Shown one piece after another: positions 2,407 through 63,339 of a DNA stretch of 64,000 bases (position 1 is the first letter of the stretch; each line of letters starts with the position of its first letter). The notes under the pieces are model-generated. The model saw only the letters and a list, made by a program, of their open reading frames with translations. It made no database searches and was not told where the DNA came from. The stretch comes from Okamejei kenojei (taxonomy: Eukaryota). Where the stretch lies: the NCBI GenBank assembly GCA_035221665.1, contig CM069139.1, forward strand, positions 56,482,001-56,546,000, read 5' to 3'. The position numbers and the translations under genes were made by a program.

Positions 2407-2559
2407 GTTCTGAGGCTTACGAGGAGGAGGCATCTTTGTAAGATGCGAAGATGGGAGAGTGTGAAAGTGTAGATGGTAGGAAAGAGAGACTGAGGGAATG
2501 TGAGAGAGAGAGAGAAAGAGAGACTGAGGGGATGTTCATACCATTGGGTTGTAGAATAC

Positions 2560-2830
2560 CCAGGCAGAATATTAGGAGTTGTTTCTCTAGCTTACCAGTG
2601 GAGGAGGCTAATGACAGACAAATCGATATGGGAATGGGAAGGGTGTGTAAAATGGCCTGCAACCATGAGATCCCGACGGCCACAGCAACACAGCGCAGGT
2701 ACTCAGTAAAGTGCTCGCCTACTCTGCGCTTCATCTCACAGATGCAAAGGGGGCCACAACGAGAGCACCAAATGCAGGAGATGAGAGTGGAGGATGTGCA
2801 GATGAATCAGTGCCTCATCTGAAAGGTTGT
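2560..2830 (-). mobile_element. Penelope-like element GIY-YIG fragment
   Basis: MKRRVGEHFTEYLR...KLEKQLLIFCLGILQPNGMNI resembles the cleaner copy at 8343-8598. Confidence 0.75.
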
Positions 2831-2871
2831 TTAGGTTCCTGGATGGAAGTGTTGGAGAAGGTTTAGTTTTG

Positions 2872-3002
2872 AGTCTGAAGAAAGGTCTTGACCTGAAATG
2901 TCACCAATTCCTTTTCTCCAGAGATGCTGCCCGGCCCACTGTTACTCCAGCATTTTGCGTCTATCTTCGGTGTAAACCAGCATCTGCAGTTCTTTCTTAC
3001 AC
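2872..3002 (+). mobile_element. Penelope-derived terminal repeat with hammerhead-like motif (2875-2902)
   Basis: CTGAAGA-A-AGGT-CTTG-ACCT-GAAA-TGTC followed by the family tail ccagagatgctgcc...gttactccagca...ccagcatctgcag. Confidence 0.75.
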
Positions 3003-3310: not shown

Positions 3311-3966
3311 CATAATGATAGGTGTTACACCTCCTATGATTGCAGGGAAAATTGCCCGGAGAGGGGGAAGCATGAGTGGGGAGGGATGAGTAAACCAGGG
3401 AGTCAGAGGGAGTGAGAGGTTCTTGACTCCCTAGTTCACTCATCCCTCCCTTTCGCCACATACTTTCTCCTGAAATCCCTCCTACAATTTAGTTTAGAGA
3501 TGTTATCAGGCAACAGTACCATCCTATCAACAATTAGAGAGCCGTCCTGCATTATCATCTACCTCATTGGAGACCCTTGGACGATTATTAATCAGACTTT
3601 AGTGGACTTTATCTTGCACTAAACGTTATTCCCTTTATCCTGCATCTGTACACTGTGCATGGCTTGATTGCAATCTTGTATAGTCTTTCAGTTGACTGGA
3701 TAGCACACAACAAAATAATTTTTCACAGTACCTCAGTACACGTGTCAATAAACTAAACTAAACTGTCTGTCCACGGCTTCCCCCACTGAGAGGGTGAAGT
3801 CAAATGCAAACTAGAGGAACAGCTTCTCATATTCTGCTTGGACCATCTACTACCTAACGCCATGAATATTGAATTCTCTAATTTTAGGGAACCTCCACCC
3901 TCTTTAAACCTTCCTCTCTTTTCCTATTTGCCATGTCCTCTCACATACACCCCTTTCTCACCTTAC

Positions 3967-3967: not shown

Positions 3968-4031
<64 letters not shown>
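3968..4031. repeat. 64-nt poly(C) tract
   Basis: Homopolymer seen directly. It produces the poly-Pro ORF at 3838-4047. Confidence 0.95.
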
Positions 4032-7800: not shown

Positions 7801-8009
7801 GCATCTAAATGCTACAGAAATGTAGCTGTGCATCTAAATGCTGTGCAAATGCAGATGTGCATGAGGCTAAAATCAAATTATTTTTTTCAAGTCCAATTAA
7901 CAGGGATCAACAAAGATTTTTGCTTTGTTTCCAGTTTGGTTTGAAAGGACACAAAGTGCTGGAGTAACTCACCAGGTCAAGAAACGTCTCTGGAGAACAT
8001 GGATAGGTG

Positions 8010-8598
8010 GTGGGGTTACACAAAAAGCTGGAGAAACTCAGCGGGTGCAGCAGCATCTAAGGAGCGAAGGAGATAGGCGATGTTTCGGGTCGAGACCCTT
8101 CTTCAGACTGGTCAGGGATCAGGGAAACGAGAGATATAGACGGTGATGTGGAGAGATAAAGAACAATGAGTGAAAGATATGCAAAAAAGTATCGATGATA
8201 AAGGGAACAAGCCATTGTAAGCTGTTTGTGGTGTGAAAATTAGAAGCTAGTGCGACTAGGGTGGGGGAGGGAGATAGAGATAGAGGGAATGCCAGGGCCC
8301 GAGGGCTGAGGGAGAGGTGGGAGGGGGAGGAGACAGCAGGGGTTAACAGAATTGAGAAAATTCAATGTTCAAGCCCAAAGGATGCAGACTCCCCAAGCGG
8401 AATATGAGGTGCTGTTCCTCCAACTTGCGGTGTTGCTCACTCTGGCTATGGAGGAGGCCCAGGACCGAGAGGTCGGATACGGAATGGGAGGGGGAGTTGA
8501 AGTGCTGAGCGACCGGGAGGTCGGGTTGGTTTTTGCGGACCGAGCGGAGGTGTTCGGCGAAACGATCGCCAAGCCTCCGCTTGGTCTCACCGATATAT
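8010..8598 (-). mobile_element. Penelope-like retroelement 3' fragment: GIY-YIG endonuclease C-terminus plus pseudo-LTR with hammerhead motif
   Basis: IYIGETKRRLGDRFAEHLRSV...PVAQHFNS...EEQHLIFRLGSLHPLGLNIEF* (8343-8598), followed by CTGAAGAAGGGTCTCGACCCGAAACATC (8106-8079). Confidence 0.9.
8079..8106 (-). ncRNA. Putative minimal hammerhead ribozyme core (PLE-associated)
   Basis: CUGAAGA-A-GGGU(CUCG)ACCC-GAAA-CAUC. Stem II is perfect. The ACGU palindrome has decayed to ACAU, consistent with CpG loss. Confidence 0.6.
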
Positions 8599-9780: not shown

Positions 9781-9883
9781 AATCTCTGCATGGCTTTCGT
9801 GAGTGTATCTCAACCAAAAGAACCTTGACTAAGTAACAGAGACCATGATAAAGTGAAAACACAAATTAAAAAACACACTTAAA

Positions 9884-10503: not shown

Positions 10504-12834
10504 TTTAATAAATATAATCATTCTACTCAGTTTGTATATACATTCACTCATCCAGGCAATATCAAGCCTTCCCTAGTCTGCTATATATGCTAGGAAATTC
10601 ATAATAAGAGTATGGTGATATTGGACAAGATCCAATGGTTTGTAGTCAAACTCTGCTGCCAGCTCCTGCACTTGATGACCATTACATATTTCCAGTTAAA
10701 AGCCACTTAAAACCCATTATTTATTTCCAGTCCAAATAACTGGGGATCTTTGGTTTGGATATCCACAGGGAACATTCAGCACAATTATTTAATTTTCTAT
10801 CATCAAAGGAATAAAACGTTTACCTGGAATAAAATGAAGAACATTTCCAGCAGGGTCATTTCAAAGGCTAATTTTAAGGAAGAAACACAGGTTGATGCCC
10901 TCGAGTGGGAACGGCTGCCTCAGCTCACTGCTTTCTCTCACCCAGGAGACATCCCACAGTCCACTGCTATTGTCCTCCACACTTCGCAATAGTCCAATGG
11001 TGCATCATGCTTTCACAGCACGGGGAAAATCCTCTGATTTGTCAGGGAGGCACGGAGGCGCAGTGATAGAGTTGTTGCCTTACAGCGCATGCAGCGCCAG
11101 AGACGCGGGTTCGATCCTCACTAGTTCTAAGATAGGACTAGGGACAATTTACGGAAGCCAGTTAACCTACAAACCTGCACGTCGTTGGAATGTGAGAGGA
11201 AACCGGAGCACCTGGTGGAAACCCACAGGCGGAACGTACAAACGTAATTGCTTTCTCTTTCCAAAGATGCCGCTTGACTGGTTGAGTTCTTCCAGCAGTT
11301 CTGTTTGTACTTCAGATACCATTTACTGCAGCTTTATTTGTTTTCAATTAATAAACTTACATTTCTAAATATCTACTGCAATCATGGCAAGCAGGGGCAA
11401 GATTAAAAAGGGTGAAGAGGAGAACACATTGCCTGTAATTGCTTGAAAATGCCATAGACAAGCATTCACCACCCAGATTGATCTGTAAGTCCCACTGTAC
11501 CTAAGGGAACTTTTTTTTAAAAATTGTGTGGAAAAAAAAGCCTTACAAGAATACACACCCACTGAATAAGCAAAGTTTAAAAGCTCTGGCTATGTGGCAA
11601 CACTAAAGAGCAGCATTATTCATCAATACCTGGTGATTTTTTTAACCATTTCAAAAGCCATAAGAATCGTTCAGAATCACTTATGGATTAATCAAGGTAG
11701 AAGCAGTACATTTCTTTCCCCAGAACATATCAATGAACCAGACAGGCTTTTGACAAGTGAGCAGCTTTCATGTGCTTATATATTTTGCTGTTAGCTTACA
11801 AAATGACTAGTTATTGCCTTCAATTGAACATAAGCTCTGTGTTGTTGTGTCATAACTTCTGCAATTTCGAACATTTTTAATGATGATAGCGAATGTCAGC
11901 TGTTTTCTTATTGTTTTAAAGAACAATCTTATCGGTATTTCACACTCAAAAGAAGAACATCAATAATTCATCTTTATCAGAGATGCCTTCAGTTACCTCA
12001 GTATCGGGTTGCCCAACCTGTGCGGTAAGTTGTGCAAATTTATTGTACCACGTACAAAGCTTGTGGAAATGAATCTCATCCCAAACAGGCTCTAAAGCGT
12101 ACTTCATAACACTTTCAAGTCCCAGATCAAAATGACTCACCAGGGAGAAGGAGCTTTAATCGGTAAGTACCTTGCTATTTTATACAAATACTGAATTGAG
12201 GGAAAGAACAAAGGTCATTATTTGCAACAAGTCTCTATTCATGTGGCGCTGGGCTCAGTGTTTCAGGTATTAATCTCAGATGACACAGTAAATTCATCCA
12301 GTAGCTATAAGATGGTCGCACTTCAGGGCTGACCCTGGGCGGGATGATTGCTGCCATGACTTTACGACCACAGAAAGTGAGCCTGCATCTGAAGAAGGAT
12401 CCCGACCCAAAACATCACCCGTCCATGTTCTCCTGAGATGTTGCCTGATCTGTTGAGTTACTCCAGCAAGTTGTGTCTTTTTTTCTGCATTTCCCACAGC
12501 TACCTGGCAACCACAGTAGGAAGATGTTGAACATTGACAACACTGGCTTCAGAGTTGGCACATTCTGTCAAAGCTTATCGAAGTGGAATGGCCATTGTGA
12601 CATGGTGTGCAATGCAACAGAAAATTCAAGTTTACTATTATATTTATTTGCAGCTGATAAAAGAGCAGAGAGCAAAGGTGTTGCATATTCCAGCATCTGC
12701 TATTGAATTTAGTCTATAAACTCAATCAAGTGAGAATCAAATATGTTTTTAGAATCTGGGCATAAACTATTATGGTACATGCATTCTTTTATTAAAGTTA
12801 TCATGGGCAAAATCAGAAAGTCATTTTTACAATA

Positions 12835-14123: not shown

Positions 14124-14242
14124 TCAGTTGGTCAGCCAACAAGCGACATGCAGTATTTCCAGGTCGGGCAAGTCTGCTGCAGGCACCAAAATAAGCAGCG
14201 GATTTTTTGAGCCGGGTAAGTCTTCTAGAGATCTTGCCAAAT
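14124..14242 (-). CDS. DPH6: DPH6 (diphthine-ammonia ligase) terminal coding exon
   Basis: Polypyrimidine acceptor ttttaattttgttatttttag. Phase-1 start matches the donor at 51004 (G+AT=Asp). Encodes (D)LARSLEDLPGSKNPLLILVPAADLPDLEILHVACWLTN*, resembling the C-terminus of long-form vertebrate DPH6. Too short for the ORF track. Confidence 0.85.
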
Positions 14243-16921: not shown

Positions 16922-17232
16922 GGGGTGGCACAGTGGCGCAGCGGTAGAGTTGCTGCCTTACAGCGCCAGAGACCCGGGTTTGATCCTGACCATGCGTGCT
17001 GTCTGTACAGAGTATGTACGTTCTCCCTGTGACCCCGTGAGTTTTCACCGGGTGCTGTGGCTTCCTCTCACACTCCAAAGACGCACAGGTTTGTAGGTTA
17101 ATGGGGGTCCCGTGAATTGTAAATTGTCACTAGTGTGTAGGATAGTGCATGTGTACGAGGTGAACGCTGGATGGCGCGGACTCCGTGGGCCGAAGGGCCT
17201 GTTTCCACGTTGTATCTCTAGAGTCTAGAGTC
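16922..17232 (+). mobile_element. Near-intact tRNA-derived V-SINE (HE1-like)
   Basis: A box TGGCGCAGCGG, B box GGTTTGATCC, core gctgtctgtacagagt..., tail gggccgaagggcctgtttccacgttgtatctcta shared with CR1 3' ends. Confidence 0.88.
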
Positions 17233-17254
17233 AATGCAGCACTGTGATGCCACA

Positions 17255-27502: not shown

Positions 27503-28339
27503 TTTTAAATCTTGCATCTTTTGTCCATGGGGGTTTATAATAGAACCAATGGTTCAGTTCGACAGACCCGACCTTACACCCGAACTCCGAATAGACGAAT
27601 TTTAAGACCCTTGAATGTCTCTCACGTGTAAATCTCCTTTGATCCAATTTGTAACTCCATTCAAACTGAAAATAATAATGATAGTTTATAATAGAAAAGA
27701 AAAGAGGATAGGTTAAGAAATTAGTATTGTGCACAAAGAAGGAAAAAACTACATCTAGTATTAGTGTAGTTAGTGCTAGCCATACTAGCATGGCTAACCA
27801 TCTACCGACCTCCGTAGTTGATGTTGTGAACTTAACCAGCCCCTTTATTTCTTGGAATTTCTATTCCATAGCAATATTTTACCGGGGGTATTAAATTTTA
27901 AAATATTCGGGTTCCAATAGTCGGAAATGTGAGGTTACAAATATTTAAAACTTGTTTGAAAATCATATTAAAAAATAAAAAAAAATTAAAAAAAACGAAT
28001 AGAAAGGAAAAAATAAAATAAAAATGAAAATTACTAGTAAAAAAGAGTGAAGGTTTCCAAAGAGGACAAATGAAATCAAACTCTATATTTGACTCTAATC
28101 ATTCCATTATAAGTAAACATTAGTCATTAGTGATAATTATTAATTCTGATTAGTAAAGATACCACGGTATAATTTTAGTATTTATTAGTTATTTGTATTA
28201 GTAGTGCAGTTATACTAATTATTAGTATCCATGGGAGAATTTCCAATACACATCTTTCTCCAGCTGCCTTAGTCACTACGTCAATTCCATCCAGTCCTGC
28301 AAAGTCAATTTATTCAATGGTGAGAGATCAAGCATCCTC

Positions 28340-29458: not shown

Positions 29459-29534
29459 TTTTTACAAGGAGCTGGCTGGCGTTACCCTCTAGCCCTCCAT
29501 AGCGCCACCGGATGCTCACCAGATTATTTTTTCA

Positions 29535-30339: not shown

Positions 30340-31265
30340 ACAAGTCTGGGCTCAATGCTAATCCTAAGCCACGCCGCAGTAAGCCAACAATACTTCTATC
30401 TACAGTTGTAAAAATGGTGGCATTCGGTGGCTGCAAGTAGGTGCTCAATGTCATTCTTGAGCTCAGAAAATACAGTGGCAGGACAACACCCAGCAATGAA
30501 GGAGGTGCCAAAGAGTGGTGGTGGACACTGCCCGGTCCATCATAAGTACCGACTTCCCCAACGTCAAAGGGATCCACAGCAGTTATTGCCTCAAAAAGGC
30601 AACATCAAGAACCCACACCACCTTGGCCACACTCTCATTTCACTCCTGCCATCATTATAGGGGTGAATGTTGTGGTTGTTGAAGTGAAGTCATTCCAGCC
30701 CCACTGCTGGAAAGGACACACAATTGCTGGAGTAACTCAGCGGGTTAGGCAGCATCTCTGGAGAACTTAGAGAGGTGAGGTTTCAGGTCGGAACCCTTCT
30801 TCAGTAACATCTATGGAGAACATGGATATGTGACGTTTCAGGTCTGGACCCTGAAAACTCCAGAGCCTAAAAACTGTAATGTCCGGGTTCAGGAACAGCT
30901 TCTACTCATCAACCATCAGACCATTGAACATTACAAACTACAGATTTTGATTGGGCTGCGTATGATGAGGCTATAAGATGCACTGCCTCAAAAAGGCTGC
31001 CAGCATCATCAGGGACACAAACATCCCGGGCCATGCTCTCAGTTCACTCTTGCTATCGAGAGGAAGGTACAGAAGCCTGAGAACTGTAACGTCCAGGTTC
31101 AGGAACAGCTTCTTCCCAACAACCATCAGGCTACAAGAGTGAACATTATCCTCGGCTCACCAAGAACTCTAGGGAGTAAGATGAAAGGATGTTGTCCAAG
31201 AGCACTCCAAATAAACTATGATCTACATAGACTTGGGTGCATTAGTTTTGTCATTTTGCACTATT
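30340..31265 (+). mobile_element. Rex1/Babar-type LINE fragments with an embedded Penelope-derived repeat (30712-30852)
   Basis: FTLAIERKVQKPEN region reads in another frame as SLLLSRGRYRSLRTVTSRFRNSFFPTTIRL, a Rex1-type C-terminal motif. Confidence 0.65.
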
Positions 31266-31269: not shown

Positions 31270-31452
31270 NNNNNNNNNNNNNNNNNNNNNNNNNNNNNNN
31301 NNNNNNNNNNNNNNNNNNNNNNNNNNNNNNNNNNNNNNNNNNNNNNNNNNNNNNNNNNNNNNNNNNNNNNNNNNNNNNNNNNNNNNNNNNNNNNNNNNNN
31401 NNNNNNNNNNNNNNNNNNNNNNNNNNNNNNNNNNNNNNNNNNNNNNNNNNNN
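31270..31452. other. Assembly gap (N run)
   Basis: Run of N. Confidence 1.
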
Positions 31453-33400: not shown

Positions 33401-34590
33401 GGTTGCTTTGATTTAGTGATGATTGACAGGAACATTTCAGTGGAAACGAAAGAACTTCAGATGCTGGTTTATACCAAAGGTAGACACAAAGTGCTAGAGT
33501 AACTCAGCGAGTCAGGCAGCATCTCTGAGGAAAATGGAGGGCAGTTATTTTCTAGTTTCATGTGGAATGAATGTCACACAATAAAACATTGGGCCTCCTT
33601 CCCACCCCCATGGTGTGTTTCTGTCAGAACCTTTAATGGCTGATTGGGTGTGGGTCCCGAGGGTCACACATCCTTTTTCACCAGAGATGCTGCCTGACCC
33701 GCTGAGTTACTCCAGCACTTTGTGTCTATCGTCCGGAAATTTCAGCACTTTCTCAATGCTGGAAAGTATGGATAATATGGAAAAAGGATCATCCAAGGCT
33801 GTCTTAAGAGCAGCTTTAAGTGAAACGTCGCCTCTCATTGTTGCCATTTTGTCTAAGAATCAAAGGACGGCAGAAGATGGAAAGCTGAAATAAAAGCTGG
33901 AAATTCTTGAACACTCAGCAGATCAGGCTGCATCGTTGGAGAGAGAAAACAAGTTAATCTTCGAATGTAAGATCATATTCCTGAAATATTTTCATCTCTA
34001 GAGTTGCTGCCTGACTTGTTGAGTTTTTACAGAATGTTTTGTTGAATTCAGTGAGTTTGAACCCCTCTGAAAATAGTTTATTGACTGATAATTAAAGCAG
34101 TCCCACCACTGACCACCACTATCAGCTGTGTTCAGTGCAGTTCTTGTTGTATTCATAGCTTGATCATTCCATACACCAACCCAGGTTTTAAGTTCATCTG
34201 ATTTACCCACAATATTCTTTTCTTTCAATTTAACTGGAAGGACATTCCAGTTAAACCCCATTAGTTAAAAGTCATACAGCACGGAAACAGGCCCTTTGGT
34301 CCAACTGGTCCATGCTGGATAAGATGCCCCATCGAAGCGTGTCCTATTTGCCCATGTTTGGCCCATATCCCTCTAAACCTTTCCTATCCATGGACCTGTA
34401 CAAATGTCATTTTATCTAAGTTCTATTCACTTTAATATGCCTCTGGGTGTCCAGATTTCTCACATTTTCAAATTTACATCACAGGCTTTTCGTTCTATGA
34501 ATAGACAAAAGAAGGCTTCATTTTTCCTGGTAAACTAAAGTAAATAATCTGAATATGAATTTTGAAATATTCATTCATTAAATAGATAAC

Positions 34591-34788
34591 GCAGATAGAC
34601 ACTAAACGCTGGAGGAACTCAGCAGGACAGCCAGCATCTCCGGAGAGATGGAATGGGTGATGTTTCAGGTGGAGACCCTTAACATCACTCATTCCTTCTC
34701 TCCAGAGATGCTGCCTGTCCCGCTGAGTTACTCCAGCTTTTTGTGTCTATCTTCGGTTTAAACCAGCATCGACACTTTCTCCCTACAC
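34591..34788. mobile_element. Hairpin-shaped Penelope-derived mini-element with 11-bp TSD
   Basis: TSD AAATAGATAAC at 34580-34590 and 34789-34799. Two inverted copies of the PLE terminal repeat meet within the hammerhead motif. Confidence 0.85.
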
Positions 34789-41209: not shown

Positions 41210-42120
41210 TAGTCATACAGCATAGAAATAGACACTCGGTCCAACTTGCTCACGCTGACCAAAATGTCCGATCTACATGAGGCCCACCTGTATGTGTTTG
41301 TCCCATGACCCTCTAAACCTATCCTATCCATGTACCTGTCCAAATGTTTCTTAAACGTTGTGATAGCACCTGCATCCTCCAGCAGGATGCTCCGTAAAAC
41401 CAACACCTTTTCTGTAAAAAAGCTACCCCTCGGGTACCGGTTAAATCTTTCCCACCTCACCGTAAACCTCTGTCCTCTGGTTTCCAATTCCCTTACTCTG
41501 GGCTAGAGACTGTGTGTTTACCCGATCTATTCCTCTCATGATATTGTACACCTCTATAAGATCACACCTCATCCACCTGTGCTCCAAGGAATAGAGTCCT
41601 GGCCTGCTCAACCTCTCCCTAAAGCTCAGGCCCTCGAGTCCTGGCAACATCCTGGCCAGAGTGAGGCCCACCGTAAATTGGAGGAGCAGCACCTTATATT
41701 TCACTTGGGTAGTTCACACCCCAGTGGTATGAACATTGACTTCTCCAATTTCAGGTAGTCCCTGCTTTCTCCTTCTTTTCCCTCCCCTTCCCAGCTCTCC
41801 CACAGCCCACTGTCTCCACCACTTCCTTCCCGCCCCCCCAATCCCACATCAATCCGAAGAAGAGTCTCGACCCGAAACGTCGCCTATTCCCTTCGCTCCA
41901 TAGATGTTGCCTCGCCCGCTGAGTTTCTCCAGCATTTTTGTCTACCTCCTCATACGTGTTCTCTGCACCCTTTTCAGCTTGACATCTTGCCTATAACATG
42001 GTTTCCAAAACTGAGCACAATACTCTAAATGAGGCCTGACCAACATCCTATACAACTGTAACATGACTTCCCAACTTCTGTACTTAATACTCTAACAGAT
42101 GATGGTCAATGTGCCAAAAG
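41210..42120 (-). mobile_element. CR1-type LINE fragment interrupted by a Penelope fragment (41655-41950, plus strand)
   Basis: RMLPGLEGLSFRERLSRPGLYSLEH... on the minus strand. The insert encodes KLEEQHLIFHLGSSHPSGMNIDFSNFR* and carries a hammerhead-like motif at 41854-41881. Confidence 0.85.
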
Positions 42121-43024
42121 GATACCTTTGAACTATCTTTAATCAGATGTTATTGGACTACAAAGTTATATCTTTGCACTAAATGTTGTACCCTTTATCT
42201 GTACACCATGGATGGTTTTGTTATATTCATGTATAGTTGTTTCTTTGACTAGATAGCATGCAAACAAAAGCTTTTCACTGTACCACAGTACACGTGACAA
42301 TAATAAACTAAACTAAACCACTGCATAACATTGATAGAAAATCTGCCTTTGCAGTGAAGTTTCCAATACAATTTAACATGTTACAAAATGCCATGGCTTA
42401 CACAGTGACTTTTGTGCAACTCTAAGGAACACAACATTACTCATGGTTTGGTTACAGTATCTCTCCAATATTCACAATCAGTTGTAAAGCTGAATTGAAA
42501 GTATTGACTTACGAAGTAGTAAAAACAATGAAATACAGATGCTGGTTTTCAGAAAAAGACACAAAGTATTGGAGTAACTCAGCATGTGTGGCAGCATCTT
42601 GGGAGAACACGGATCAATGACGTTTTGGATCGGGAGCCTTCTTCAGATCGATTGTAGGGGATGCGAGGGGGGGGGGGGGGAGAGAAAACTGGAAGAGAGG
42701 AGGGGGCAGGACAAAGCGTGGCAGGTAATAGGTGAACACATTGTCCTGCCCCTCCCCTCCAGTTTTCCTCTCCTCCCAACACCTACAATCAGTTTGATGT
42801 GTCCCAACCCAAAAACGTCACCGCTCCAATATTCTCCAGAGATGCTGCCTAACGCGCTGAGTTACTCTGCCATTTTGTGTCTGCTTTTTACAGACTTACC
42901 AAAGCTTGCTGAAGTTGTCCTAGTCCACTGAGCTTTATTCCCCTGACATATGTCCAGGCACATGTTTATTTCTGTGAAGTAAGAGATAGCAACTCCACCC
43001 CAGTCAAAGTTCTTCCATCCAGCT

Positions 43025-44604: not shown

Positions 44605-44855
44605 GGTGGCACGGTAGTGCATCGGTAGAGTTGCTGCCTCACAGCGCCAGAGCCCCGGGTTCCACCCTGATTATGGGTGCTGTCTGTACGAAGTTTGTAT
44701 GTTCTCCCCATGATCATGTGGATTTTCACCGGGTGCTCTGGTTTCCCTCACTCACTCCAAAGACGTGCAGGTTTGTAGGTTAATTGGCCTCGGTGAAAAC
44801 TGTTAATTGTCCCTAGTGTGTAGGATAGGTGCGAGTGTGCGGGGATCGCCGGTTG
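44605..44855 (+). mobile_element. V-SINE (HE1-like)
   Basis: ggtggcacggtagtgcatcggtagagttgctgcctcacagcgccagag...ccaaagacgtgcaggtttgtagg. Confidence 0.82.
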
Positions 44856-48699: not shown

Positions 48700-49555
48700 G
48701 CACAAAAAGCTGCCTAACTCAGCAGGACAGGCAGCATTTCTGGAGAGAAGGAATAGGTGATGTTCCGGGTCTGAAGAAGGGTCTCGACCCAAAACATCAC
48801 TGGGTGGCCCTTCGATGGCAACCTTGTCTGTCCTTTTTGTCTTTTTTTTGTTATTTTTAGTGTGTTTAAAAAGTATGTGTTAATGTTCTCTGGTTTGTTT
48901 TATGTGGGGGATGTGCGAGGGAAACTTTTTTTCCATCTCCTACATTGCCGGAGATCCGATTGTTTTCCGGATTGTATTTCCGGTCGCTCTGCGGCCTAAC
49001 ATCATGGAGCTGGTGGCTTTGCTCTGGACTGACTTTGAGCCCCACCGCGGGGCATGGACTTATCATTGGAACCAATTCCTTGTCTGGGATCGACGCTCCA
49101 ACTGCGGCCTGCAGACTTTAACATCAAGGAACTCGCAGTCTCGGGTTGAGACTGACGTCAGGAAGCTCCAAAAGCCACACGACGTTCGACTAGCCCCGAC
49201 CCGGGGTATAATTGCCCGGCGCGGGGGAGTTTAGATTCCCCCCTGATGCAGGAGCTCGATCGCCCCGGTGGCTACGGGAGTAAGATCGTCCTGTCAACAG
49301 AAAGTTGGATGTCCCCAACCGCTGGAGGACAAAGAAGGGAGAGATTGAACTTTTTTTCGCTTTCTGTCACAGTGAGGAATATGGAGGAATCACTGTGGTG
49401 GATGTTCATGTTAAAATGTATTTTGTGTGTTTTGTTGCTTTTTTATTAGTATAACTGTATGACAAATCAAATTCCTCGTATGTTGTAAAACATACTTGGC
49501 TAATAAAGTATGATTATGATTTCTTCTTCCCAGAGATGCTGCCTGTCCCGCTGCG
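48700..49555. mobile_element. Inverted Penelope-derived pair split by a ~720-bp insertion (48801-49521)
   Basis: Hammerhead-like motif at 48771-48798. The insert ends AATAAAGTATGATTATGATT and the PLE tail resumes at 'ccagagatgctgcctgtcccgctg'. Confidence 0.7.
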
Positions 49556-49910: not shown

Positions 49911-50366
49911 CTTCAGATGGGCTTTTTCAGAAGGGTCTCGACCCGAAATGTCACCCATTCCTTCTCTCCAGAGATACTGCCTGTCCTGCTGAGTTACTCC
50001 AGGTTTTTGTGTCTATCTTTGGTTTAAACCAGCATCTACAGATCCTTCTTACACACTTAAATAATGGAAATTATACAAGCAGAATTAGTGCAGAGGGGAA
50101 TTCCAGGCCATTGTGGATGGCTGAAGGGATGGATACATGGTCAACCTTCAAAGGTCAAGTCAAGAGTGTTTCATTGTCATATGTCCTGAAAGGGAACACT
50201 GAAATTCTTACCTGCAGCAGCACAAAGGACAGATAAAACTTAGTACTCAGTAAACACAATAATAAACAAAAATAAATTAGTACATAGAGAAAAGATATAT
50301 ATACTATATATAGAAGCATATATATATATATATAAATATACAGAAATGTCCAGTGCATTTAAATAA

Positions 50367-50518
50367 NNNNNNNNNNNNNNNNNNNNNNNNNNNNNNNNNN
50401 NNNNNNNNNNNNNNNNNNNNNNNNNNNNNNNNNNNNNNNNNNNNNNNNNNNNNNNNNNNNNNNNNNNNNNNNNNNNNNNNNNNNNNNNNNNNNNNNNNNN
50501 NNNNNNNNNNNNNNNNNN
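50367..50518. other. Assembly gap (N run)
   Basis: Run of N. Confidence 1.
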
Positions 50519-51003: not shown

Positions 51004-51394
51004 CTCTTTGCACTAAGCTGGGATTTATGGCATCTTTGCAGTAAAAAATTTTGAAGCAGACAGGAATCACATCCCCGGGAAGCTTATCCATTGCTTGCTG
51101 GAAGACCACAGCTAGTTCTTGCAGTGCAGCCTTTAAACTCAATGAATTCACGGGTGAAAGCAGAAGACTCAGTGACAATGAGATAGCAGCACTAGATGGC
51201 GAACCTGACATCACCACTTTACAATTGATTTCATAAACTTCCAATTTCTTATTTAGGATGAAGGATTTTCTCTCCCGGACCTCGCGGGTCATGGCGATGG
51301 CGTGCCACTCCACTGCTGCACCTTTCGGTAAATGTGGGATGGCAACTACCACAAGTATTCCAGGGGTAGCTTCCATCATTCTGTAACCTTCATC
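51004..51394 (-). CDS. DPH6: DPH6 internal coding exon (C-terminal YjgF/Rid-like region)
   Basis: Acceptor tttatttttatcacag|GAT (phase 0), donor AG|gtaag (phase 1). Encodes DEGYRMMEATPGILVVVAIPHLPKGAAVEWHAIA...SLVQR. LPKGAAVEW is the Rid-family LPxxAxVE motif seen in Dph6 C-terminal domains. Confidence 0.88.
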
Positions 51395-51431
51395 CTGTGA
51401 TAAAAATAAATGAGGTCAATGAGCACAAGTC

Positions 51432-53808
51432 ACTTATTTCTGATCACTCTCCGCTGACTTTTACTTTAAAACTTGAGGGAATGCCAGGTATAAAATTATT
51501 TTGGAGATTTAACACACAAAACGTTTTCTAAATAAAAAAATCAGGACAGAACAATGGACGTTAGAAAAGGAAATTAAATTATTAGAATTAGGAAACACAA
51601 AAGACCCAACCATAGGCAAACATAATAAGATAACATTATTGAAATTTAAACTTAATCGAATATTATCGGCAAGAGTAATAAGATTATTTCAGATCACAAA
51701 ACAAGTACAGTTTGAATTTGGGGATAAACCACATAAACTTCTAGCACGACAATTGAAGAAGCAAGAAAAGGAAACAACAATTAGTAAAATTAAATCATAG
51801 AACAGGGAACTTTTAACTGTACCTATGGACATTAACAAAAGGTTTGCTCAATTCTATCAACATTTATATACATCTAAAACTAACATTGAAGACAATAAAA
51901 TTATAATTTTTTTAGATAAGTGTAACTTGTCAAAATTGGATATCTTAGAACAAGAGCAATTAGGAGCTCAGATTACAAGTGAAGAAATAAGAGAACCAAT
52001 AAAAGAACTGAAAAATGGGAAGATACCATGGCCTGATGGTTTTAATAATGAATTCTATAAAAGATTTCAGGAGTTAATGGTCCCACGATTACTTAAATTA
52101 TACAGTTATGCTTTTACCGAAAATAAATTACCAGAAACTTTAGCAGAATCTACAATTACGCTTATACCAAAAAAAGATAAAGATCTAGAAGATCCGGGCT
52201 CGTATAGAGCTATATCACTTTTAAATACAGATCAAAAAATTTTAGCAAGAAGATTGAGCAAATATATTAATAAATTGATAAACCAGGACCAAACGGGGTT
52301 TATACCCAAAAGACAATCATTTAACAATTTGAGACAACTTTTTAATATAATGTATTCACATAAAGGGGAAAAGGAAGACTTATCAGTTATATCGTTGGAT
52401 GCAGAGAAAGCATTGGATCAGGTAGTGTGGCAGTATTTATACATAGTACTCCAAAAATTTAATATGGGAGATAATTTTATTAGATGGGTAAAATTATTAT
52501 ATGATAAACCAACAGCAAGAATATTAACTAATAATATGTTGTCTCCAAAATTCCAATTATCACGGGGCAATACGCAGGGATGTGTTTTATCACCCTTGCT
52601 ATTTGCCCTTATAATAGAGCCACTGGCTGAAAGGATAAGAACACATCCGAATATTCAGGGATACAATACTAAGGACTCTAATAACAAAATTTCATTATAC
52701 GCGGATGATATACTTTTATATATTAGAAATTCAGAAACGAATATCCCGAATTTATTAAATATAATAGAGGAATTTGGCTCCTTTTCTGGATATAGAATAA
52801 ATTGGAATAAAAGTGAAATTATGTAATTACAGCCCCAGAAAGCGAATCATCTATTACAATTTCCATTTAAAATTGCAATGGAAAATTGTAAGTATTTAGG
52901 TATTCAAGTTACCAGAAGATATAAATCATTATTTAACGCTTATTTTAGTCTTTTGCTAAATAAATTGAATGCTCTATTTAAATTTTGGAAAACGCTCCCA
53001 CTATCATTAATTGGCAGAATAAATGCTATAAAAATGATAATGCTACCACAAATAATATATTTATTTCAATCAATACCAATATATATACCAAAATATTAAA
53101 AAAAAAACTAGACTCTAATATTAATAATTTTATATGGGACTACAAAGCACATAGAATTAAAATAAATCATTTGTGTAAACCTAAAGATGTAGGGGGACTT
53201 GCACTGCCTAATTCCTTACGATTTAGGAGCGATTCTCTTCTCCCCGATAAAATTGAATAATATATTATATAAGAAGAATCCAATCATACACAATATAATT
53301 CGAATTTGGAAACAAATAAAATTAAAATTAAGAAACTTATCATCATTAACACCAATAGTGAATAATCCGGTATTAAAACCATCTTTTATGGATAAAACAT
53401 AGACAATGGGAAAGATTGGGAATTAAAAAGTTGGGTGACATGTATGAAATGGGAAATTTATTATTATTTCAACAATTAAAATCAAAATTTATTCTGAATA
53501 ATAACCAATACTTTAAATATTTACAGATATGTGACTTTATAAAAAAAATATACCAAGATTACAGAATATAACGATAGACCCACTGGAAGAAGCAATGAAT
53601 ATTAAGGCGGACTCACAAAAATTAATATCATATATATAACAGTATCCTTAATAGAAAATTGCCATCAACAGAGGCAATTAGAGAAGACTGGGAAAAAGAT
53701 TTAATGATAAACATTTCTAAAGAAACATGGGAGAGGTATTTGATATATATACATAAATGTTCGATTAACAATAGACATAATTTAATTCAATTTAAAATAG
53801 TACACAGT
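51432..53808 (+). mobile_element. L1 ORF2 fragment, truncated at both ends, antisense to DPH6
   Basis: LISDHSPLTF, FEFGDKPHKLLARQL, SLDAEKALDQV, QGCVLSPLLF, LYADD, HKCSINNRHNLIQFKIVH. Related to but distinct from the L1 at 22756-29518. Confidence 0.92.
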
Positions 53809-54831
53809 TGTGTACTGACTCAATGAAGTCTAAAATTACAATACAATCATTACACTTTTGTACTTATCTATGATGGTATGCTTTTACTGGATTGTGTGCA
53901 AAACAAAGAATTACACTGTACCTAGGTGCATTGGTACATGTGACAATAAAGATTCATCATCACTCTAATTCCTTGCAAGGTCCCTGCAGCATGTGAACTG
54001 ATTTAAAAGCTGTCTCTTTGATTGCTGGCTATCACATCGTTCTATCCATGTGCCTGTCCAAATGTCTTTGAAATGTTGTTATAGTACCTGGCTCAACTAC
54101 CTCCTCTGGCAGCTCGTTGCATATACCCACCACCCTTTGGGTGAAAAAGTTGCCCCTCAGGTCCCTATTAAATCTTTGCCCTCTTGCCTTAAACCTATGT
54201 ACTTTCTCAGCAGTTTTCGGCATTTAGTGGATTATCTTTAACAGTCGTCTCATGTCTAAGGAAAGTAATGGATAGGAAAGGTTTAGAGGGAAATGGGCCA
54301 AATGCAGGTTGGTGGGATAAGTGTAGATGGTGTAACTTGGTTGGCATGGGGACATTTTCATGACTCTAAGACTCTATAACTCTAAATATGTCTGATCTTC
54401 CAACCTACTTCATTGTAGCCCTTGCACTTTTATCTGTACTTTCTCTGTGGGTGTAACACTACACTCTGCACTTTGTTTCCTTTCTCCTTTTGCACTACCT
54501 GTTGTGCTCATGCATGGTTTGATTTTCACATGTGGATGAATTTCCTGCTTTTTGGTGCAGGTTACTATAGTAAACCAATATCATTCCCAGGACCACACAT
54601 AAACAAATGTTAAGTGTGGTCTCACTCGCATGAGTGTGCAATCAAATGTGTGTGCAAGAGTTTAAAGCCTCACGGCGAAAACCATTTGTTGTTGTAATTG
54701 GTACAGCAGCCTGTTCCAGAGCATAAAGAAAAAGCCATCCTCATCCATACGGCAGCTGAAAGCTCACATGAAGAACACCCTTTGTGTTTGCAGTAACCCA
54801 CATTAAAACTAAAAACACATACAATACATCC

Positions 54832-55132
54832 TTTAGTTTAGTTTTAGTTTAGAGACACAGTGCGGAAGCAGGCCCTTCGGCCCACCGAGTCCGCGCTGAC
54901 CAGCGATCACCCCATACACTAGCACTATTATACACATTAGGGACAATTCACAATTTTACCAAAGCCAATTAACCTACAAACCTGCACGTCTTTGGAGTGT
55001 GGGAAGAAACCGGAGTACCCGGAGAAAACCCATGCTGTGAGAATGTACAAACATACTGTCAGCATCCGTAGTCAGGATCGAACCCAGGACTCTGGCACTG
55101 TATGGCAGCAACTCTACCGTTGCCCCACTGTG
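54832..55132 (-). mobile_element. V-SINE (HE1-like), well preserved
   Basis: (tttag)n tail, caggcccttcggcccaccgagtcc, core, gtcaggatcgaaccc B box. Confidence 0.87.
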
Positions 55133-57325: not shown

Positions 57326-57951
57326 TTTAGAGCATTGAATATAGGAGCAGGGAAGTAATGTTAAAATTGTACAAGGCATTGGTGAGACCAATTCTGGAGT
57401 ATGGTGTACAATTTTGGTTGCATAATTATACGAAGGATGTCAACAAAATAGAGAGAGTACAGAGGAGATTTACTAGAATATTGCCTGGGTTCCAGCAACT
57501 ATGTCACAGAGAAAGGTTGAACAAGTTAGGTATTTATTCTTTGGAGCGCAGAAGGTTAAGGGGGGACTTGATTGAGGTCTTTAAAATGATGAAAGGGATA
57601 GACAGAGTTGACGTGGATAAGCTTTTCCCATTGAGGATAGGGAAGATTCAAACAAGAGGGCATGACATAAGAATTAAGGGACAGAAGTTTAGGGTAACAT
57701 GAGGGGGAACTTCTTTACTCAGAGGGTGGTGGCTGTGTGGAATGAGCTTCCAGCAGAAGTGGTGGAGGCAGGATCGATTTTAACATTTAAAAGTAAAGTG
57801 GATAGATATATGGACGGGAAGGGAATGGAGGGGTATGGTCTGAGTGCAGGTAGATGGGACTAGGGGAAAACAAATGGTCGGCATGGACTGGAAGGGCCGA
57901 GAGGGCCTGTTTCTGTGCTGTAATTGTTATATGGTTATATGGTTATATGGT
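57326..57951 (+). mobile_element. Young CR1/HER1-type LINE with 9-bp TSD, inserted in a SINE tail
   Basis: TSD TACAGAGCA at 57317-57325 and 57952-57960. (TTATATGG)n tail. Host SINE continues to ~58230. Confidence 0.93.
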
Positions 57952-59094
57952 TACAGAGCAGAAACAGGCCATCAGCCCACCGAGTTCACGATGACCGATG
58001 GTCACTCGTACGCTAACACTATCCTAACTCTAGGGACAATTTACAATTTTACAGAAGCCAATTAATCAACAAATCTGCATGTCTTTGGGATGTGGGAAGG
58101 AACTGGAACACCTGGAGAAACCCTACGCAGTCACGGCGAGAACATACAAACTCTGCACAGGCAGCACCCATAGTCAGGATCAAACCCAGGACTTTGGTGC
58201 AATAGGCTCAACTGCTGCACCACTGTGTCACCCCTGATGCTTTATGTCCATGAGAACTGTGGAAAAATATTGCACAGCACTTTCATGGAAATTAATTAAA
58301 CTTTGTTAACATGTATGAGAACAAGTGTTACTTTAACAGAAATATAAACAAATATAGTATTTCAGAAATATCTTCGAAAGACAATTCTTATGACTGTGTC
58401 AGAAGTCAGAAAGAGTTTCTGATGTTTTCAATCATTAAATGTGTTATGTGATTATTTTACCTCATTTTTCTCCTTTGGGAAAATCAAACTGCAGTAGACA
58501 TACCTTCCAGTTAAAGTAACAAACCTGGCATGCGTAAAGACGGGTCTCAACCCGAAAATGTCACCTATTCCTTTTCTCTAGAGATGCTGCCTGACCCACT
58601 GAGTTACACCAGCTTTTTGTGCCTATCATGTTTATGTTGGATTTCACCAGTTTTCAGTGTGCTAAAATATCATTGTGTTCACATCCATATCAAAACGGGA
58701 TACCTCAAAAATTGTGAAATTGTGCAAAAAGGCATGAGAAACAGTGACAGACAACGAACAGAATGGGCAATGCATTGTAACCAACAGGACCAGGATCAAT
58801 TAGACACTGCAGGCCATGCTATGATATGCAGCAATCACAGTACAATGTCAGCCCTTAAAGAGACATTACCAATAATACATATAAGGCAAGAACAATAATG
58901 AATTCCTGTTGTATGACATATGTATTAGAAAAAATGTCGAGTATACCAGAGTGTAAAGTGGAAGGCAGGAGATCAAGCCTGCAAGAGGCAACAAAATTGT
59001 TTCCTCCAGCACAAAGAATACACACACTTGTAGTCAGACTAAAGGAAATTGAGTGATTGAGTTAAACAGCATGGAAACAGGCCTTGGAAACAGA

Positions 59095-59554: not shown

Positions 59555-60123
59555 TTGGCACCAAATGCTGGAGTAACTTAGCAGGACAGGCAGCATTTCT
59601 GGAGAGAAGGAATGAGTGACGTTTCAGGTCGAGACCCCTCTTTTGTCATTCTCTCTCACTCACCATTGTTAGAGTGAGGCCCAGCGGAAATTGGAGGAAC
59701 AGCACCTCATATTTCGCTTGGGCAGCTTATACCCCAGCATATGAACATTGACTTCCCTAACTTCAAGTAACCCTTGCTTTCCCTCTCTCTCCATTCCTCC
59801 CCCTTCGCCATTCTCCGACCAGTCTTACTGTCTCAAACTACTTTTTATCTTTGTTTGCCGTGAACAGAGATTTTTTTTAAGCAGCTAAATCCCAGCTAAC
59901 AATGATCTATTCTACATTTTCCTTGATCTCCATTCCCTTTGTCCTATTTTCACACTTTACACTTCCTTATCTATGTGTCTCCCCTGACATCCGTCTGAAG
60001 AAGGTTCTCGACCCGAAACGTCACCTATTTCTTCTACCCAGAGATGCTGCCTGTCCCGCTGAGTTACTCCAGCATTTTGTATCGATCTTCGGTTTAAACC
60101 AGCATCTGCAGTTGCTTCCTACA
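59555..60123 (+). mobile_element. Penelope-like element 3' end with an upstream inverted partial pseudo-LTR
   Basis: Inverted repeat copy at 59555-59640, then SEAQRKLEEQHLIFRLGSL, then pLTR with hammerhead core at 59995-60022 and terminal tail. This is the classic PLE architecture. Confidence 0.85.
59995..60022 (+). ncRNA. Putative minimal hammerhead ribozyme core (best-preserved catalytic core)
   Basis: CUGAAGA-A-GGUU(CUCG)ACCC-GAAA-CGUC. All core residues present, ACGU palindromic stem III, GUC triplet. One mismatch in stem II and only ~2 bp of obvious stem I. Confidence 0.62.
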
Positions 60124-60129
60124 CTGTTG

Positions 60130-60560
60130 CTTTGGCATCTTTTGATAATCTGACTACATATCTGTTCCTCTATCTCCTGCATGCTATAGGGGACCCTATA
60201 GTACAATCCTATTAGAGTGCCAGCACCTTTCTTATCTCTAAACTCTAACCATATCATCTCAGCAGTCTAACATGTCCTTTCTGGTGGCCACATGACTGTC
60301 TCCTTGATTAGTAGCACAACGCCTCCACCTCTTTTGCCTCCCTTCTCGATCACGTCTGAAACATCCAAACACTGAGGTGCCAGTCGTGTCCCTCTCGCAA
60401 CCACATTTCCACAATGGCCACAACATCATAATCCTAAGCACTGATCCAGTCTCTAAGTTCATCTGCTTTCTCCACACTGCTCCTGGCATTGAAATAAACA
60501 CACTTCAGCCCACCAGTGTCACCATATTCCTTCACCTCTGCCTGCATGTCCTTCTTTTGA
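60130..60560 (-). mobile_element. CR1 ORF2 N-terminal endonuclease fragment
   Basis: CVYFNARSSVEKADEL...FRRDR...IWLEFRDKKGAGTLIGLYYR...IEEQICSQI. Confidence 0.8.
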
Positions 60561-61310: not shown

Positions 61311-62145
61311 CGTGTTCAAGGAACTGAAGGAACTCAGTGGTGCAAACATGAGAGAGAGCAAACAGGGAGAATGATTACTTGCTCACTGGGAAACACCACC
61401 TCCTCAAACCCTGTCAGCAATGTAGCACTGTCTGGCCTCAGCCCACCCTGAACCTCTGAGCAGATCATTGCCCATGTGGTGAACTTGAAAGTGAGACCGA
61501 GATTTCTAAATGTGATTCAATTCACAAGTATAAGGTACAATTTATTTTTGATGAAAAATTGATTTTTGTTCTGGAAATTCTTCACTTTGATGTGGCGCTG
61601 GTCAATCTTTCTCTTACAAGCATATACATTTGGAGCAAAGGTACCACTCACTTCCTCCAGCTTCTTTTCCCATTCAATAAAATCACAGCCAATTGGATTG
61701 TAATCTCAATACCACATTTCTGCTACCCCAATTAAGCTTTCAGACCCTGCATTATCAAGAATGCACTTAGTGCGACCATAACACTTTAAAAAAATCCACT
61801 TCTACCGTCACTTGAAGAAGACAATTCACATGAAGTAGAAACACTCGTAACACCGAAAAAGAAAAGGTATGTGTCTTAAAGAAGTAAACCTTCACTGTTA
61901 AACTGTGACCCCAGTTCTAAATCCTCTCACAAGAGGAAACATTCTGACAAAGGATTGCAAACCCAAGATGTTACATTTCTCTTTCCACAAGTGCTGCCTG
62001 ACTTGCTGGGCTATGCCAGCATTTTGTGGTTTTGTTTCAGCTACTCAGAAACTCAGAGGGCCCTGCAATCTCAGATTGTAAGTAAACCTGTCAATGTTGC
62101 ACCACATTACTTCCAACTATGCCGAGATAAACAACCTCATTTTAA

Positions 62146-62314
62146 TGTTGGCACAAAGAACTGCAGATGCTGGTTTATACCTTGGATTGACACTAAGTAC
62201 TTCCCCCGCCTCCCCACTTTCAGTCTGAAGAACGTTCCCAACCCGAAATGTCACCTATCCCTTTTCTCCAGAGACGCTGCCCGACCCCCTGAGTTACTCC
62301 AGCACTTTGTGTCT
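62146..62314. mobile_element. Penelope-derived mini-element with 16-bp TSD
   Basis: TSD AACAACCTCATTTTAA at 62130-62145 and 62315-62330. Inverted terminal piece plus degenerate hammerhead motif at 62225-62252. Confidence 0.85.
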
Positions 62315-63029
62315 AACAACCTCATTTTAAAAACGATCGGCAACAAAACTAGACTTGACAAAGTTTCTGTGTTTCTGCCCCAAAAGAAAAGCAGTGTGCC
62401 TGAAGTTATTTTCATGAGGAAGCCTCTAGTTTCTTGCCCAATGGAACAAATTCTACAACAGTCTGTTTCCTTATGCTGTAAGCAGGAAGTCAAAATTTAC
62501 AAGCAATATATGTATAGACCTGGTAAATATCCACAGGATACATCTTTGAACCGCTCAACATTTAAATTTTCTGACAGCTGTTCCAGGATGGCATTATCAG
62601 ATACTGTCCAAGGGTCACATGGAGAAAGTCGGCTGTTTAATTTGTGGACTAATGACACCATTGGGTTAACGGCACTACTTTGGAAACTATATGGTTTAAC
62701 GGATGCTCTGGAATTCCTAACCCCGCTTTCCATTAGTTTGGCCAAATCTAATTTTGATTACTTTCCACCCAGCAGGAACGTTGTAAAATTGTCGAACAGG
62801 CAGTCAACACTTTGCTACTTTGCTATACTATCACCCACTATTGAGAGAATTTCCATCCTTCCTTGTTGAAAAAAACAGTTGCCTTTCTGAATTCCCTGAC
62901 ATAGGTTGATACATATCTTGATGGGTAAAACCTTTACATGATTTTTTTAAATGGTTTAATTATTGAGAAAAATAATGTTGTCAGAGGCAAAATAATGGAA
63001 TGGTCCCTGATTCATTATCTGAGCTCTCA

Positions 63030-63226
63030 AAATGTAGAAACGAGGAACTGCGGATGCTGGATAATATACAAAAGGACGCAAAGTGCTGGAGTAACTCAGC
63101 AGGTCAGGCAGCATCTCTGGAGAACATGGATAGGTGATGTTTCGGGTCTCGACTCAAAACGTCATCTATCTATGTTCTCCAGATATGCTGCCTGACCTGC
63201 TGAGTTACTCCAGCACTGTGTGTCCC
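63030..63226. mobile_element. Palindromic Penelope-derived mini-element with 12-bp TSD
   Basis: TSD TCTGAGCTCTCA at 63018-63029 and 63227-63238. 63074-63225 is a near-perfect palindrome centred on the hammerhead stem II (63144-63155). Confidence 0.87.
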
Positions 63227-63339
63227 TCTGAGCTCTCACTTGGAGTGATACATTGGACTCTATAAAAATCTAAAGACCTACATTATTTGCATCTCCTCAT
63301 CAAAATGCAGGAACAAACATTCCTCGACTGACCAAATAA

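Follow-up and report, generated by a model that had tools for sequence, protein, structure and literature searches.

Minimal hammerhead motifs in the truncated ends of a Penelope-like element of the skate Okamejei kenojei

The role of hammerhead ribozymes in Penelope-like retrotransposons is still described as open (PMC8557442, PMC11167929). The question is raised again by a stretch of 64,000 nucleotides from the skate Okamejei kenojei (GenBank assembly GCA_035221665.1, contig CM069139.1, positions 56,482,001 to 56,546,000 of the forward strand; hereafter the window, numbered from its first letter). An initial annotation, made from the letters alone, described in it a recurrent hammerhead-like motif, typified by the focal copy at 59995-60022 on the plus strand, as part of a very large ribozyme-bearing repeat family transcribed in part within the DPH6 gene. 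What is this motif, which element carries it and what do its dispersed copies do?

The family assignment is correct and the functional reading is overstated: the hammerhead is of a known kind and notable mainly for its abundance. Our best overall explanation, which we consider probable, is that the short copies are 5′-truncated pseudo-long terminal repeat (pLTR) ends of an endonuclease-bearing, Neptune-type Penelope-like retrotransposon, the parent of which has the standard minimal type I hammerhead after its GIY-YIG open reading frame (ORF). The end of the element consists of the endonuclease end, a pyrimidine-rich untranslated region (UTR), the hammerhead, a body of about 60 nt and an optional tail. 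In the focal insertion these parts follow an inverted arm, an arrangement that matches the drawing for Penelope-like elements in PMC8557442:

59559..59642, minus strand: inverted 5′-truncated arm of the focal insertion, without CUG
59664..59770, plus strand: C-terminal remnant of the GIY-YIG endonuclease, frameshifted
59771..59992, plus strand: pyrimidine-rich 3′ UTR from the endonuclease stop to the hammerhead, varying between subfamilies
59993..60024, plus strand: focal motif with its 2-bp stem I (59993-59994 pairs with 60023-60024)
59995..60022, plus strand: focal minimal hammerhead motif, C3 to C17, with predicted cleavage between 60022 and 60023
60025..60088, plus strand: downstream pLTR body, the most abundant part, with a pyrimidine tract that is the predicted partner of the CUGA box
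60089..60124, plus strand: optional tail of about 35-40 bp, ending at the second common 3′ end, with loose contig ends behind 60124 in all four sequencing runs compared

Identity of the motif and of its carrier

All nine copies named in the initial annotation were found on the strands given for them by a mismatch scan, with zero to five mismatches to 59995-60022. Eleven sites lie within five mismatches of the focal motif, none being found in any of 100 shuffled windows, and 12 lie within seven (shuffle maximum 1). The density is very high, since a profile hidden Markov model (HMM) seeded with the nine copies recovered 35 fragments, or 3,245 of 64,000 bp; the same profile found none in the reversed window. 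The motif as written earlier is the majority sequence of the family and not that of the focal copy, in which T at 60005 gives a U.C mismatch in stem II. Assembled contigs from four of 24 sequencing runs (X5, X11, X16 and X17), placed on 59655-60135 at 80% likeness, have G at this position in 91%, 97%, 91% and 98% of summed depth, respectively.

The motif combines CUGANGA, an extra A, a stem II with G10.1-C11.1, GAAA, a loopless palindromic ACGU and C17. The hammerhead core CUGANGA...GAAA...UH is the majority at every core column and intact in the focal copy, and the extra nucleotide between A9 and 10.1 is A in 14 of 16 rows. Helix II has 4 bp in the majority sequence, at least 3 bp being the rule, with 10.1-11.1 as G-C in 11 of 17 rows. 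The palindrome 15.2-16.2 lacks loop 3 and is ACGU in the majority; its CpG is intact in six of 17 rows and reads TG or CA in ten of the other 11. Core, extra A, G10.1-C11.1 and palindrome all match PMC4209133 Fig S3, as does the placement within the pLTR, downstream of the GIY-YIG ORF, in three window copies and in 13 of 46 eligible related loci, so that the earlier assignment to the Penelope-type minimal type I hammerheads stands. The hammerheads known from pLTRs of metazoan Penelope-like elements (Cervera and de la Pena 2014, PMC4209133) have the same CUGANGA with an extra nucleotide, G10.1-C11.1, GAAA-C-G-U-C and no loop 3, likewise follow a GIY-YIG ORF, and are mostly single dispersed copies with some opposite-strand pairs 100-700 bp apart. 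They differ in helix II (5-8 bp, against 4 bp in the skate) and in helix I, which in the skate is closed by U-A or U.G and, at 2 bp, falls short of their search minimum of 3. Cartilaginous fish are absent from Table S1 and Fig S3 of that work.

The skate helix I consists of U-A or U.G followed by G-C, and then an A.C mismatch. The first pair is U-A or U.G in all seven rows with an intact upstream side; the second is G-C in five of the seven and A-U in one. Position 1.1 is only A or G (14 A and 3 G of 17 rows; G in 13-39% of contig depth), and both bases pair with U2.1. The initial annotation gave stem I as 2-3 bp; it is short, as stated, and has 2 bp in these copies. All of them therefore fail the published descriptor, which asks for a helix I of 3-7 bp (PMC4209133 Fig S7). 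Re-implemented for a scan of the window, this descriptor returned no site at a helix I of at least 3 bp and three sites at a helix I of at least 2 bp (2875, 8106 and 59995), against a mean of 0.01 in 100 shuffles. The skate helix is within the known range, since members with a 2-bp helix I (e.g. Culex) are listed in PMC4209133 Fig S3 and the minimum of the descriptor is a search setting.

In the predicted folding, the purine-rich CUGA box and the 5′ strand of helix II would pair with a pyrimidine tract just past the cleavage site. The predicted probability of helix II never exceeds 0.06 in the nine copies and is as low as 0.004 in the majority sequence of the window; the noisy subfamily majorities give 0.001-0.33, and nine of 13 relatives more than 0.6. 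When two 40-nt majority fragments were cofolded in silico, the double-hammerhead pairing (stems II and III only) scored -12.7 kcal/mol, far from the predicted optimum of -21.1 kcal/mol. The downstream 8-bp hairpin is paired in 86.6% of alignment cells and displays no two-sided change.

The identity of the motif gains independent backing from related elements. Related loci were the best 80 of 539 metagenome stretches, 46 of which reach the ORF end with at least 400 nt after it, and the core was sought within 400 nt after the ORF with no pairing demanded. It was present in 13 of the 46 on the sense strand and in 0 of 46 on the antisense strand. Among the 12 distinct motifs the mean length of helix I is 3.0 bp (1.22 bp when strands are swapped between elements, 0 of 2000 swaps reaching the observed value) and that of helix II 4.0 bp (3.13 bp, 1 of 2000); in nine of the 12, helix I has 3-5 bp. 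As the related loci share ancestry, these covariation figures overstate independence. Two relatives, L083 and L097, share all four helix II pairs with the skate motif and have other loops and a 3-4-bp helix I. The same core with covarying stems in related elements argues for a genuine minimal hammerhead, and on this comparison of sequences the identity as a Penelope-type hammerhead is almost certain.

A second clade among the related loci (a 23-row group) has hammerheads without the extra A and with a longer helix III, 236-446 nt after the ORF (L123, L124, L126, L135, L136, L139, L141, L146-L149, L152-L154 and L156). A metagenome scan with a strict DNA pattern of the motif returned no loci. 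A looser pattern gave 76 loci in viral contigs, taken as chance because none of the 76 matches the family profile.

The carrier is indicated by its endonuclease. The end of a GIY-YIG ORF, noted earlier before three copies, is real at 8106 (minus), 41854 (plus) and 59995 (plus), where the last conserved endonuclease motif lies 264, 123 and 252 nt before C3. The piece at 8346-8642 (minus) matches Pfam GIY-YIG weakly, short of the curated cut-off (E=0.053), and also matches 66 of 243 longer candidate proteins, with Leucoraja erinacea on top (88%, E=6e-41) and other skate, ray and shark proteins as the next best. In a tree of 67 rows (endonuclease only, midpoint-rooted, with unlabelled relatives and no reference Neptune, Nematis or Poseidon sequences) the window piece is the neighbour of the little-skate protein (99/82), inside a chondrichthyan group of eight rows (100/98). 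Sequence comparison thus establishes its kinship to chondrichthyan Penelope-like proteins. The longest relatives (P0004 and P0030) have a reverse transcriptase (RT) followed by GIY-YIG and group with or near the window endonuclease. Relatives have a C-x4-C-x2-C linker; in the sister protein P0002 it takes the form CX2-5CxxC, conserved in the alignment, and a decayed copy lies at 3321-3404 of the window. A linker of the CX2-5CxxC type is a hallmark of Neptune or Nematis elements (PMC8557442). As described in that work, the Neptune clade is also alike in the C-terminal GIY-YIG after the RT with this linker (here in relatives), the CxxC and two histidines of the endonuclease, the inverted 5′-truncated arms and an optional 30-40-bp tail.

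Several skate and ray gene models (P0001, P0002, P0003, P0008 and P0011) end in the endonuclease of the element and have unrelated N-termini, among them a receptor-transporting protein 3-like one and a kinase-domain isoform; these are annotation chimeras or exonisation. The read-through C-terminus of a zebra shark model (P0005) is compatible with the core, but its stem bases could not be fixed and it was not used as evidence.

Copies in the window: abundance, decay and boundaries

Besides the focal insertion, the following copies and remnants of the element are present in the window:

2531..2842, minus strand: decayed linker end and GIY-YIG remnant
2875..2902, plus strand: copy with A10.1-U11.1 and a decayed palindrome; an inverted endonuclease remnant precedes it head-to-head
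3321..3404, minus strand: decayed RT-to-endonuclease linker with the cysteine motif region
3760..3888, plus strand: C-terminal endonuclease remnant with no hammerhead after it
7943..8009, minus strand: 3′ half of an older copy, beginning at the cleavage position
8079..8106, minus strand: copy with G1.1 and a CpG-decayed palindrome, past the DPH6 stop codon
8346..8603, minus strand: best GIY-YIG fragment, open, with YIGETKR; top match Leucoraja erinacea, 88% identity
8600..8628, minus strand: 5′ half of the same older, decayed copy, a weak match (E=0.013) that stops at the cleavage position
12389..12416, plus strand: copy with G12A and a broken stem II
30777..30852, minus strand: partial tandem of two incomplete copies in the last DPH6 intron, sense
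34590..34770, both strands: head-to-head fold-back pair with its turn at stem II
41657..41881, plus strand: endonuclease end, short 3′ UTR and a copy with U4C
42523..42882, both strands: head-to-head pair, the minus arm containing 42619-42646 (G12A)
48701..48800, both strands: head-to-head pair with 3-nt microhomology to the stem II 3′ strand, the plus arm containing 48771 (G12A)
49929..50050, plus strand: copy cut off inside the CUGA box, with tail
58537..58627, plus strand: copy cut off inside the CUGA box
62225..62252, plus strand: copy with a broken stem II; an inverted tail, 62149-62201, precedes it head-to-head
63045..63230, both strands: near-perfect fold-back palindrome on the stem II loop, with 80-nt arms, 88% complementary

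The contig records placed on 59655-60135 number 216,032 in X5, 204,902 in X16, 22,106 in X11 and 16,072 in X17. Extrapolated to 2.2 Gb, the assembly size of the little skate (10.1101/2022.03.21.485123), the window density corresponds to 1.2x10^6 fragments, of which 3.1-3.8x10^5 have the full-length motif, while division of the X5 summed depth by about 35 (the typical depth of eight listed long pieces) gives 2.8x10^5 motifs and 1.7x10^6 fragments. Both are orders of magnitude only, since summed depth does not measure copy number and a single window may be atypical. Roughly, and by extrapolation, the skate family has 10^5-10^6 copies, in agreement with the very large family proposed from the 35 fragments in 64 kb. 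The extrapolated number of about 3x10^5 motif copies in the skate, decayed ones included, is far above the 4,000 in coelacanth and 9,000 in Xenopus given in PMC4209133, but as the latter count descriptor matches, the figures cannot be compared like for like. A literature search covering titles and abstract openings found no description of the present skate family. Hammerhead retrozymes are reported from one chondrichthyan genome (10.64898/2026.07.22.740005), in a work whose supplements may include the skate family, and an expansion of Penelope-like elements is reported for the introns of the whale shark (10.1101/443036).

Decay was scored over the 17 of 35 fragments that span the motif, with seven features per copy, and none of the 17 has all seven; ribozyme-bearing is therefore a description that fits the parent and not the copies. 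The CpG of C11.1-G12 is intact in 7/17 copies, that of the palindrome in 6/17, that of loop II in 11/17 and the downstream ones in 5/15, so the core CpGs decay like those downstream and most copies are CpG-decayed, as the initial annotation had it. G12, the general base of the hammerhead (PMC6155905), is lost in five of 17 copies, and C11.1 is T in five of 17, in four of which G10.1 is unchanged. The genomic copies decay neutrally, and they are very likely inert passengers.

Copy boundaries were refined by local alignment for the 30 of 35 fragments that passed a score filter, positions being counted from C3. The 3′ ends fall at +87 to +97, in or near the body 60025-60088, in 16 of 30 fragments and at +112 to +132 in nine, the others being shorter; loose contig ends rank high behind both of 60080 and 60124 in all four runs, those at 60080 being partly clipped by mismatches of the focal copy. 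Such a pair of 3′ clusters matches the anole element, in which an optional tail lies between two internal initiation sites (PMC11167929). The 5′ starts are ragged: eight at or before helix I, eight in the CUGA box, six in helix II, three in GAAA-C17, one at the cleavage site and four downstream. Exactly the same start, +16 in the stem II 3′ strand, is found in four fragments. As 25 of the 30 fragments run through the cleavage site, they appear to have been copied from uncleaved RNA. Raw HMM starts (38-41) had suggested many copies beginning at the cleavage site; refined boundaries leave one in 30, explained by a nested insertion. At that place a younger element (8600-8016) appears to lie within an older copy (7943-8628), at most 1 nt from the cleavage position, with a weak left half (E=0.013); the left half ends at +29 and the right half begins at +28 in this one case.

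Three head-to-head pairs turn at helix II. The pair at 63144/63148 is a near-perfect palindrome on the helix II loop. At 34674/34680 copying went two bases past helix II, and these stand in register in place of the two bases next after it; at 48769/48771 the junction runs via a three-base microhomology to the helix II 3′ strand. We infer from these three cases that they are the expected trace of complementary DNA (cDNA) folding back to prime itself. Palindromes at inverted junctions have been ascribed to self-priming (PMC3846280); in our reading of three cases, such a palindrome can be helix II.

Among the opposite-strand joints listed, the commonest link two 3′ ends, 60080 with 60113-60124; the 60080/60124 joints occur in 43 contigs of X5 and 46 of X16. 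This suggests either that elements inserted tail-to-tail into copies already present or that internal hairpins produced an artefact.

Mechanism, alternatives and the host gene

In the mechanism that we propose, the protein of the element would nick DNA and begin reverse transcription at an internal site of the RNA, which lies about 90 or 130 nt 3′ of C3. Reverse transcription would pass back through the uncleaved hammerhead and mostly stop within it, either because the RNA begins there or because the structure stalls the enzyme (-3 to +9). The new cDNA would often fold back on its own stem II complement and prime itself, giving head-to-head palindromes. The nearest parallel is the PAc element of Anolis (Frangieh et al. 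2024, PMC11167929), which likewise has a pLTR hammerhead, two 3′ ends bracketing a tail downstream and no sign of ends at the cleavage site, and for which protein-assisted cleavage, an uncleaved template and internal initiation are described. It differs in belonging to another clade, Poseidon, without the cysteine linker, and in that protein-assisted cleavage is demonstrated there and only presumed for the skate element.

Whether the parent ribozyme cuts is a matter on which we lean towards slow cleavage, as a dimer through ACGU or with the protein of the element, since stem I has only 2 bp and the pyrimidine tract is predicted to sequester the CUGA box. Low, dimer-only activity is given for Penelope-type minimal hammerheads in PMC4209133, and dimer cleavage is attributed to Lunse et al. 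in the review PMC6765202.

A number of results weigh against the explanation by truncated ends of a hammerhead-bearing parent. The parent is inferred from relatives, because the 64-kb window holds neither an RT remnant nor a full-length element; unlike the Neptune clade, the skate family is known here without a full-length copy. Its Neptune type is most likely, as placed by motifs and not by a reference tree. The 12 related motifs are not independent, four having one stem II-loop sequence, and 33 of the 46 eligible loci lack the exact core, 15 of them having another hammerhead form further downstream and 18 none. Some 5′ starts are clipped by decay and are not true truncations, so that the counts are approximate, and the fragment at 8009 (minus), the right half of the older split copy, does begin at the cleavage site. 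Stem II covariation and excess core conservation, both set as checks in the initial annotation, do not rise above the controls in the window copies: the covariation score for helices I and II was reached by 133 of 500 shuffles, and RNAalifold returned no consensus pair. Copy 2875 does read AGGT/ACCT, as noted earlier, and is the only two-sided change in helix II; with such a score, and with T at C11.1 in five of 17 copies, it is not evidence of covariation. The raw comparison of core with other columns gave 2/133 versus 51/607 changes (p=0.003), an excess of conservation at odds with neutral decay; it was rejected because of hand-set start columns and an A-rich core, and after base-matching to downstream columns it was gone (1/68 versus 8/210, p=0.69, at low power).

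The absence of covariation in the window, and of any hammerhead among the 46 Rfam matches at E<=5 there, could be taken to mean that the likeness is an accident within an ordinary repeat (the miRNA-like Rfam matches are fold-back palindromes and G/C runs). The probability of this is negligible: it is effectively refuted by related elements, which have this core in the corresponding place and stems that differ in sequence yet still pair, and the motif fits the published consensus (PMC4209133) exactly and yields three descriptor sites at a 2-bp stem I where shuffled windows yield practically none. A more serious alternative, unlikely but not by a wide measure, is that the skate hammerhead is vestigial even in the parent, does not cleave under any condition and is kept as a structural or promoter signal; it may then serve as an RT stop, a fold-back primer or a protein-binding site. 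It would account for a stem I shorter than the 3-5 bp of most related motifs, for the alternative hairpin that dominates the predicted ensemble, and for copies made from uncleaved RNA with turns at stem II; moreover, the anole element could insert in vitro without cleavage (PMC11167929). What speaks against it is that core, extra A, G10.1-C11.1 and palindrome are the majority in all three window subfamilies while loop II and the downstream part differ, that position 1.1 is restricted to the two bases that pair with U2.1, and that 2-bp members are among those published.

The short copies could also form a separate non-autonomous family, SINE-like or retrozyme-like, with transcripts of its own and mobilised in trans by the Penelope protein. 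The window has just five endonuclease ends for its 35 fragments, X5 contig depth gives a similar ratio (7.9M versus 59M), and the non-LTR retrozymes, which share the type I hammerhead, originate from Penelope pLTRs and occur in one chondrichthyan genome (10.64898/2026.07.22.740005). These, however, consist of tandem units each with a hammerhead, whereas the skate copies are solo or inverted and truncated: among the 20 tandem-repeat rows of the window none has units with a complete hammerhead each, the partial tandem at 30777-30852 being the only one of the unit, 5′ ends are not fixed, and three copies are continuous into the endonuclease ORF. We regard a separate family as improbable.

The claim that minus-strand copies are transcribed in the DPH6 pre-mRNA leads to the host gene, which lies on the minus strand and encodes the long form of the protein with two RidA-like (Ribonuc_L-PSP) domains:

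51005..51403, minus strand: DPH6 penultimate coding exon
14127..14237, minus strand: DPH6 last coding exon

The last intron (14238-51004) spans about 37 kb. The claim fits the copies at 30777 and 42619, which are sense and intronic but broken, the former having lost helix I and the palindrome and the latter having G12A and a broken helix II. It does not fit the copy at 8079, which lies about 6 kb past the stop codon with six AATAAA sites between and is therefore probably outside the transcript. The focal copy is antisense to DPH6. That dispersed copies are active ribozymes cutting host pre-mRNAs such as this one, alone or as dimers of neighbours, might be argued from their very high density, from the 13 intronic fragments in sense orientation and from the three copies that pass the descriptor once a 2-bp stem I is allowed. 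Those three are all antisense to or downstream of DPH6, however, both of the named copies that are sense, intronic and equipped with a CUGA box are broken, the 13 sense fragments are balanced by 13 antisense ones, and G12 is lost at the neutral CpG rate, which makes active copies highly improbable. Nothing points to an effect on DPH6, and little consequence is expected for it or for host gene regulation. Two fold-back pairs in DPH6 introns (34590-34755 and 63069-63230) form 75-80-bp hairpins, 88% complementary, on either strand, and are possible double-stranded RNA substrates.

The explanation by truncated pLTR ends can be extended, tentatively and with a chance that we put at the low end, to a hammerhead held off by a downstream anti-ribozyme hairpin and acting mainly as the end of reverse transcription and, through stem II fold-back, in second-strand priming, with up to a million fragments. 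If this were true, skates would have one of the largest hammerhead-motif populations of any genome (about 10^5 full motifs and 10^6 fragments), which would have escaped the standard descriptor through the reduction of helix I to 2 bp, and the inverted ends of Penelope-like elements would be tied to ribozyme helix II, a role in transposition without cleavage. The high copy number offers a natural read-out of the transposition reaction, and descriptor-based ribozyme censuses would undercount families with a 2-bp helix I.

Other repeats of the window

A Tc1/mariner-like transposon occupies 200-1822; its inverted ends are 215 bp long (94%), and 1009-1602 holds a DDE_3 frame. LINE remnants, which we take to be L1-like from their sequence type, are present at 23019-29461 (minus) and 51524-53211 (plus), with RVT_1 at 24493-25548 and a 373-codon ORF1-like frame at 28340-29461. 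Three LINE 3′ fragments of about 620 bp, presumably CR1-like (9883-10512, 26399-27027 and 57329-57946), are 95-96% identical, which points to recent activity. The plus-strand stretch 61880-62869 is a 329-codon stop-free frame across two repeat fragments, antisense to DPH6; it has no Pfam match, its 179-codon second half has no usable Atlas match, and it probably arose by chance. Runs of N mark assembly gaps at 31270-31452 and 50367-50518, and a 64-base poly-C (3968-4031) cuts off the UTR of an endonuclease remnant. Another dispersed family is abundant too; with a length of about 300 bp it resembles a SINE in size, and it has members at 2120-2328, 3011-3295, 9186-9778, 15846-16155, 16917-17233, 44605-44855, 54831-55132 and other places.

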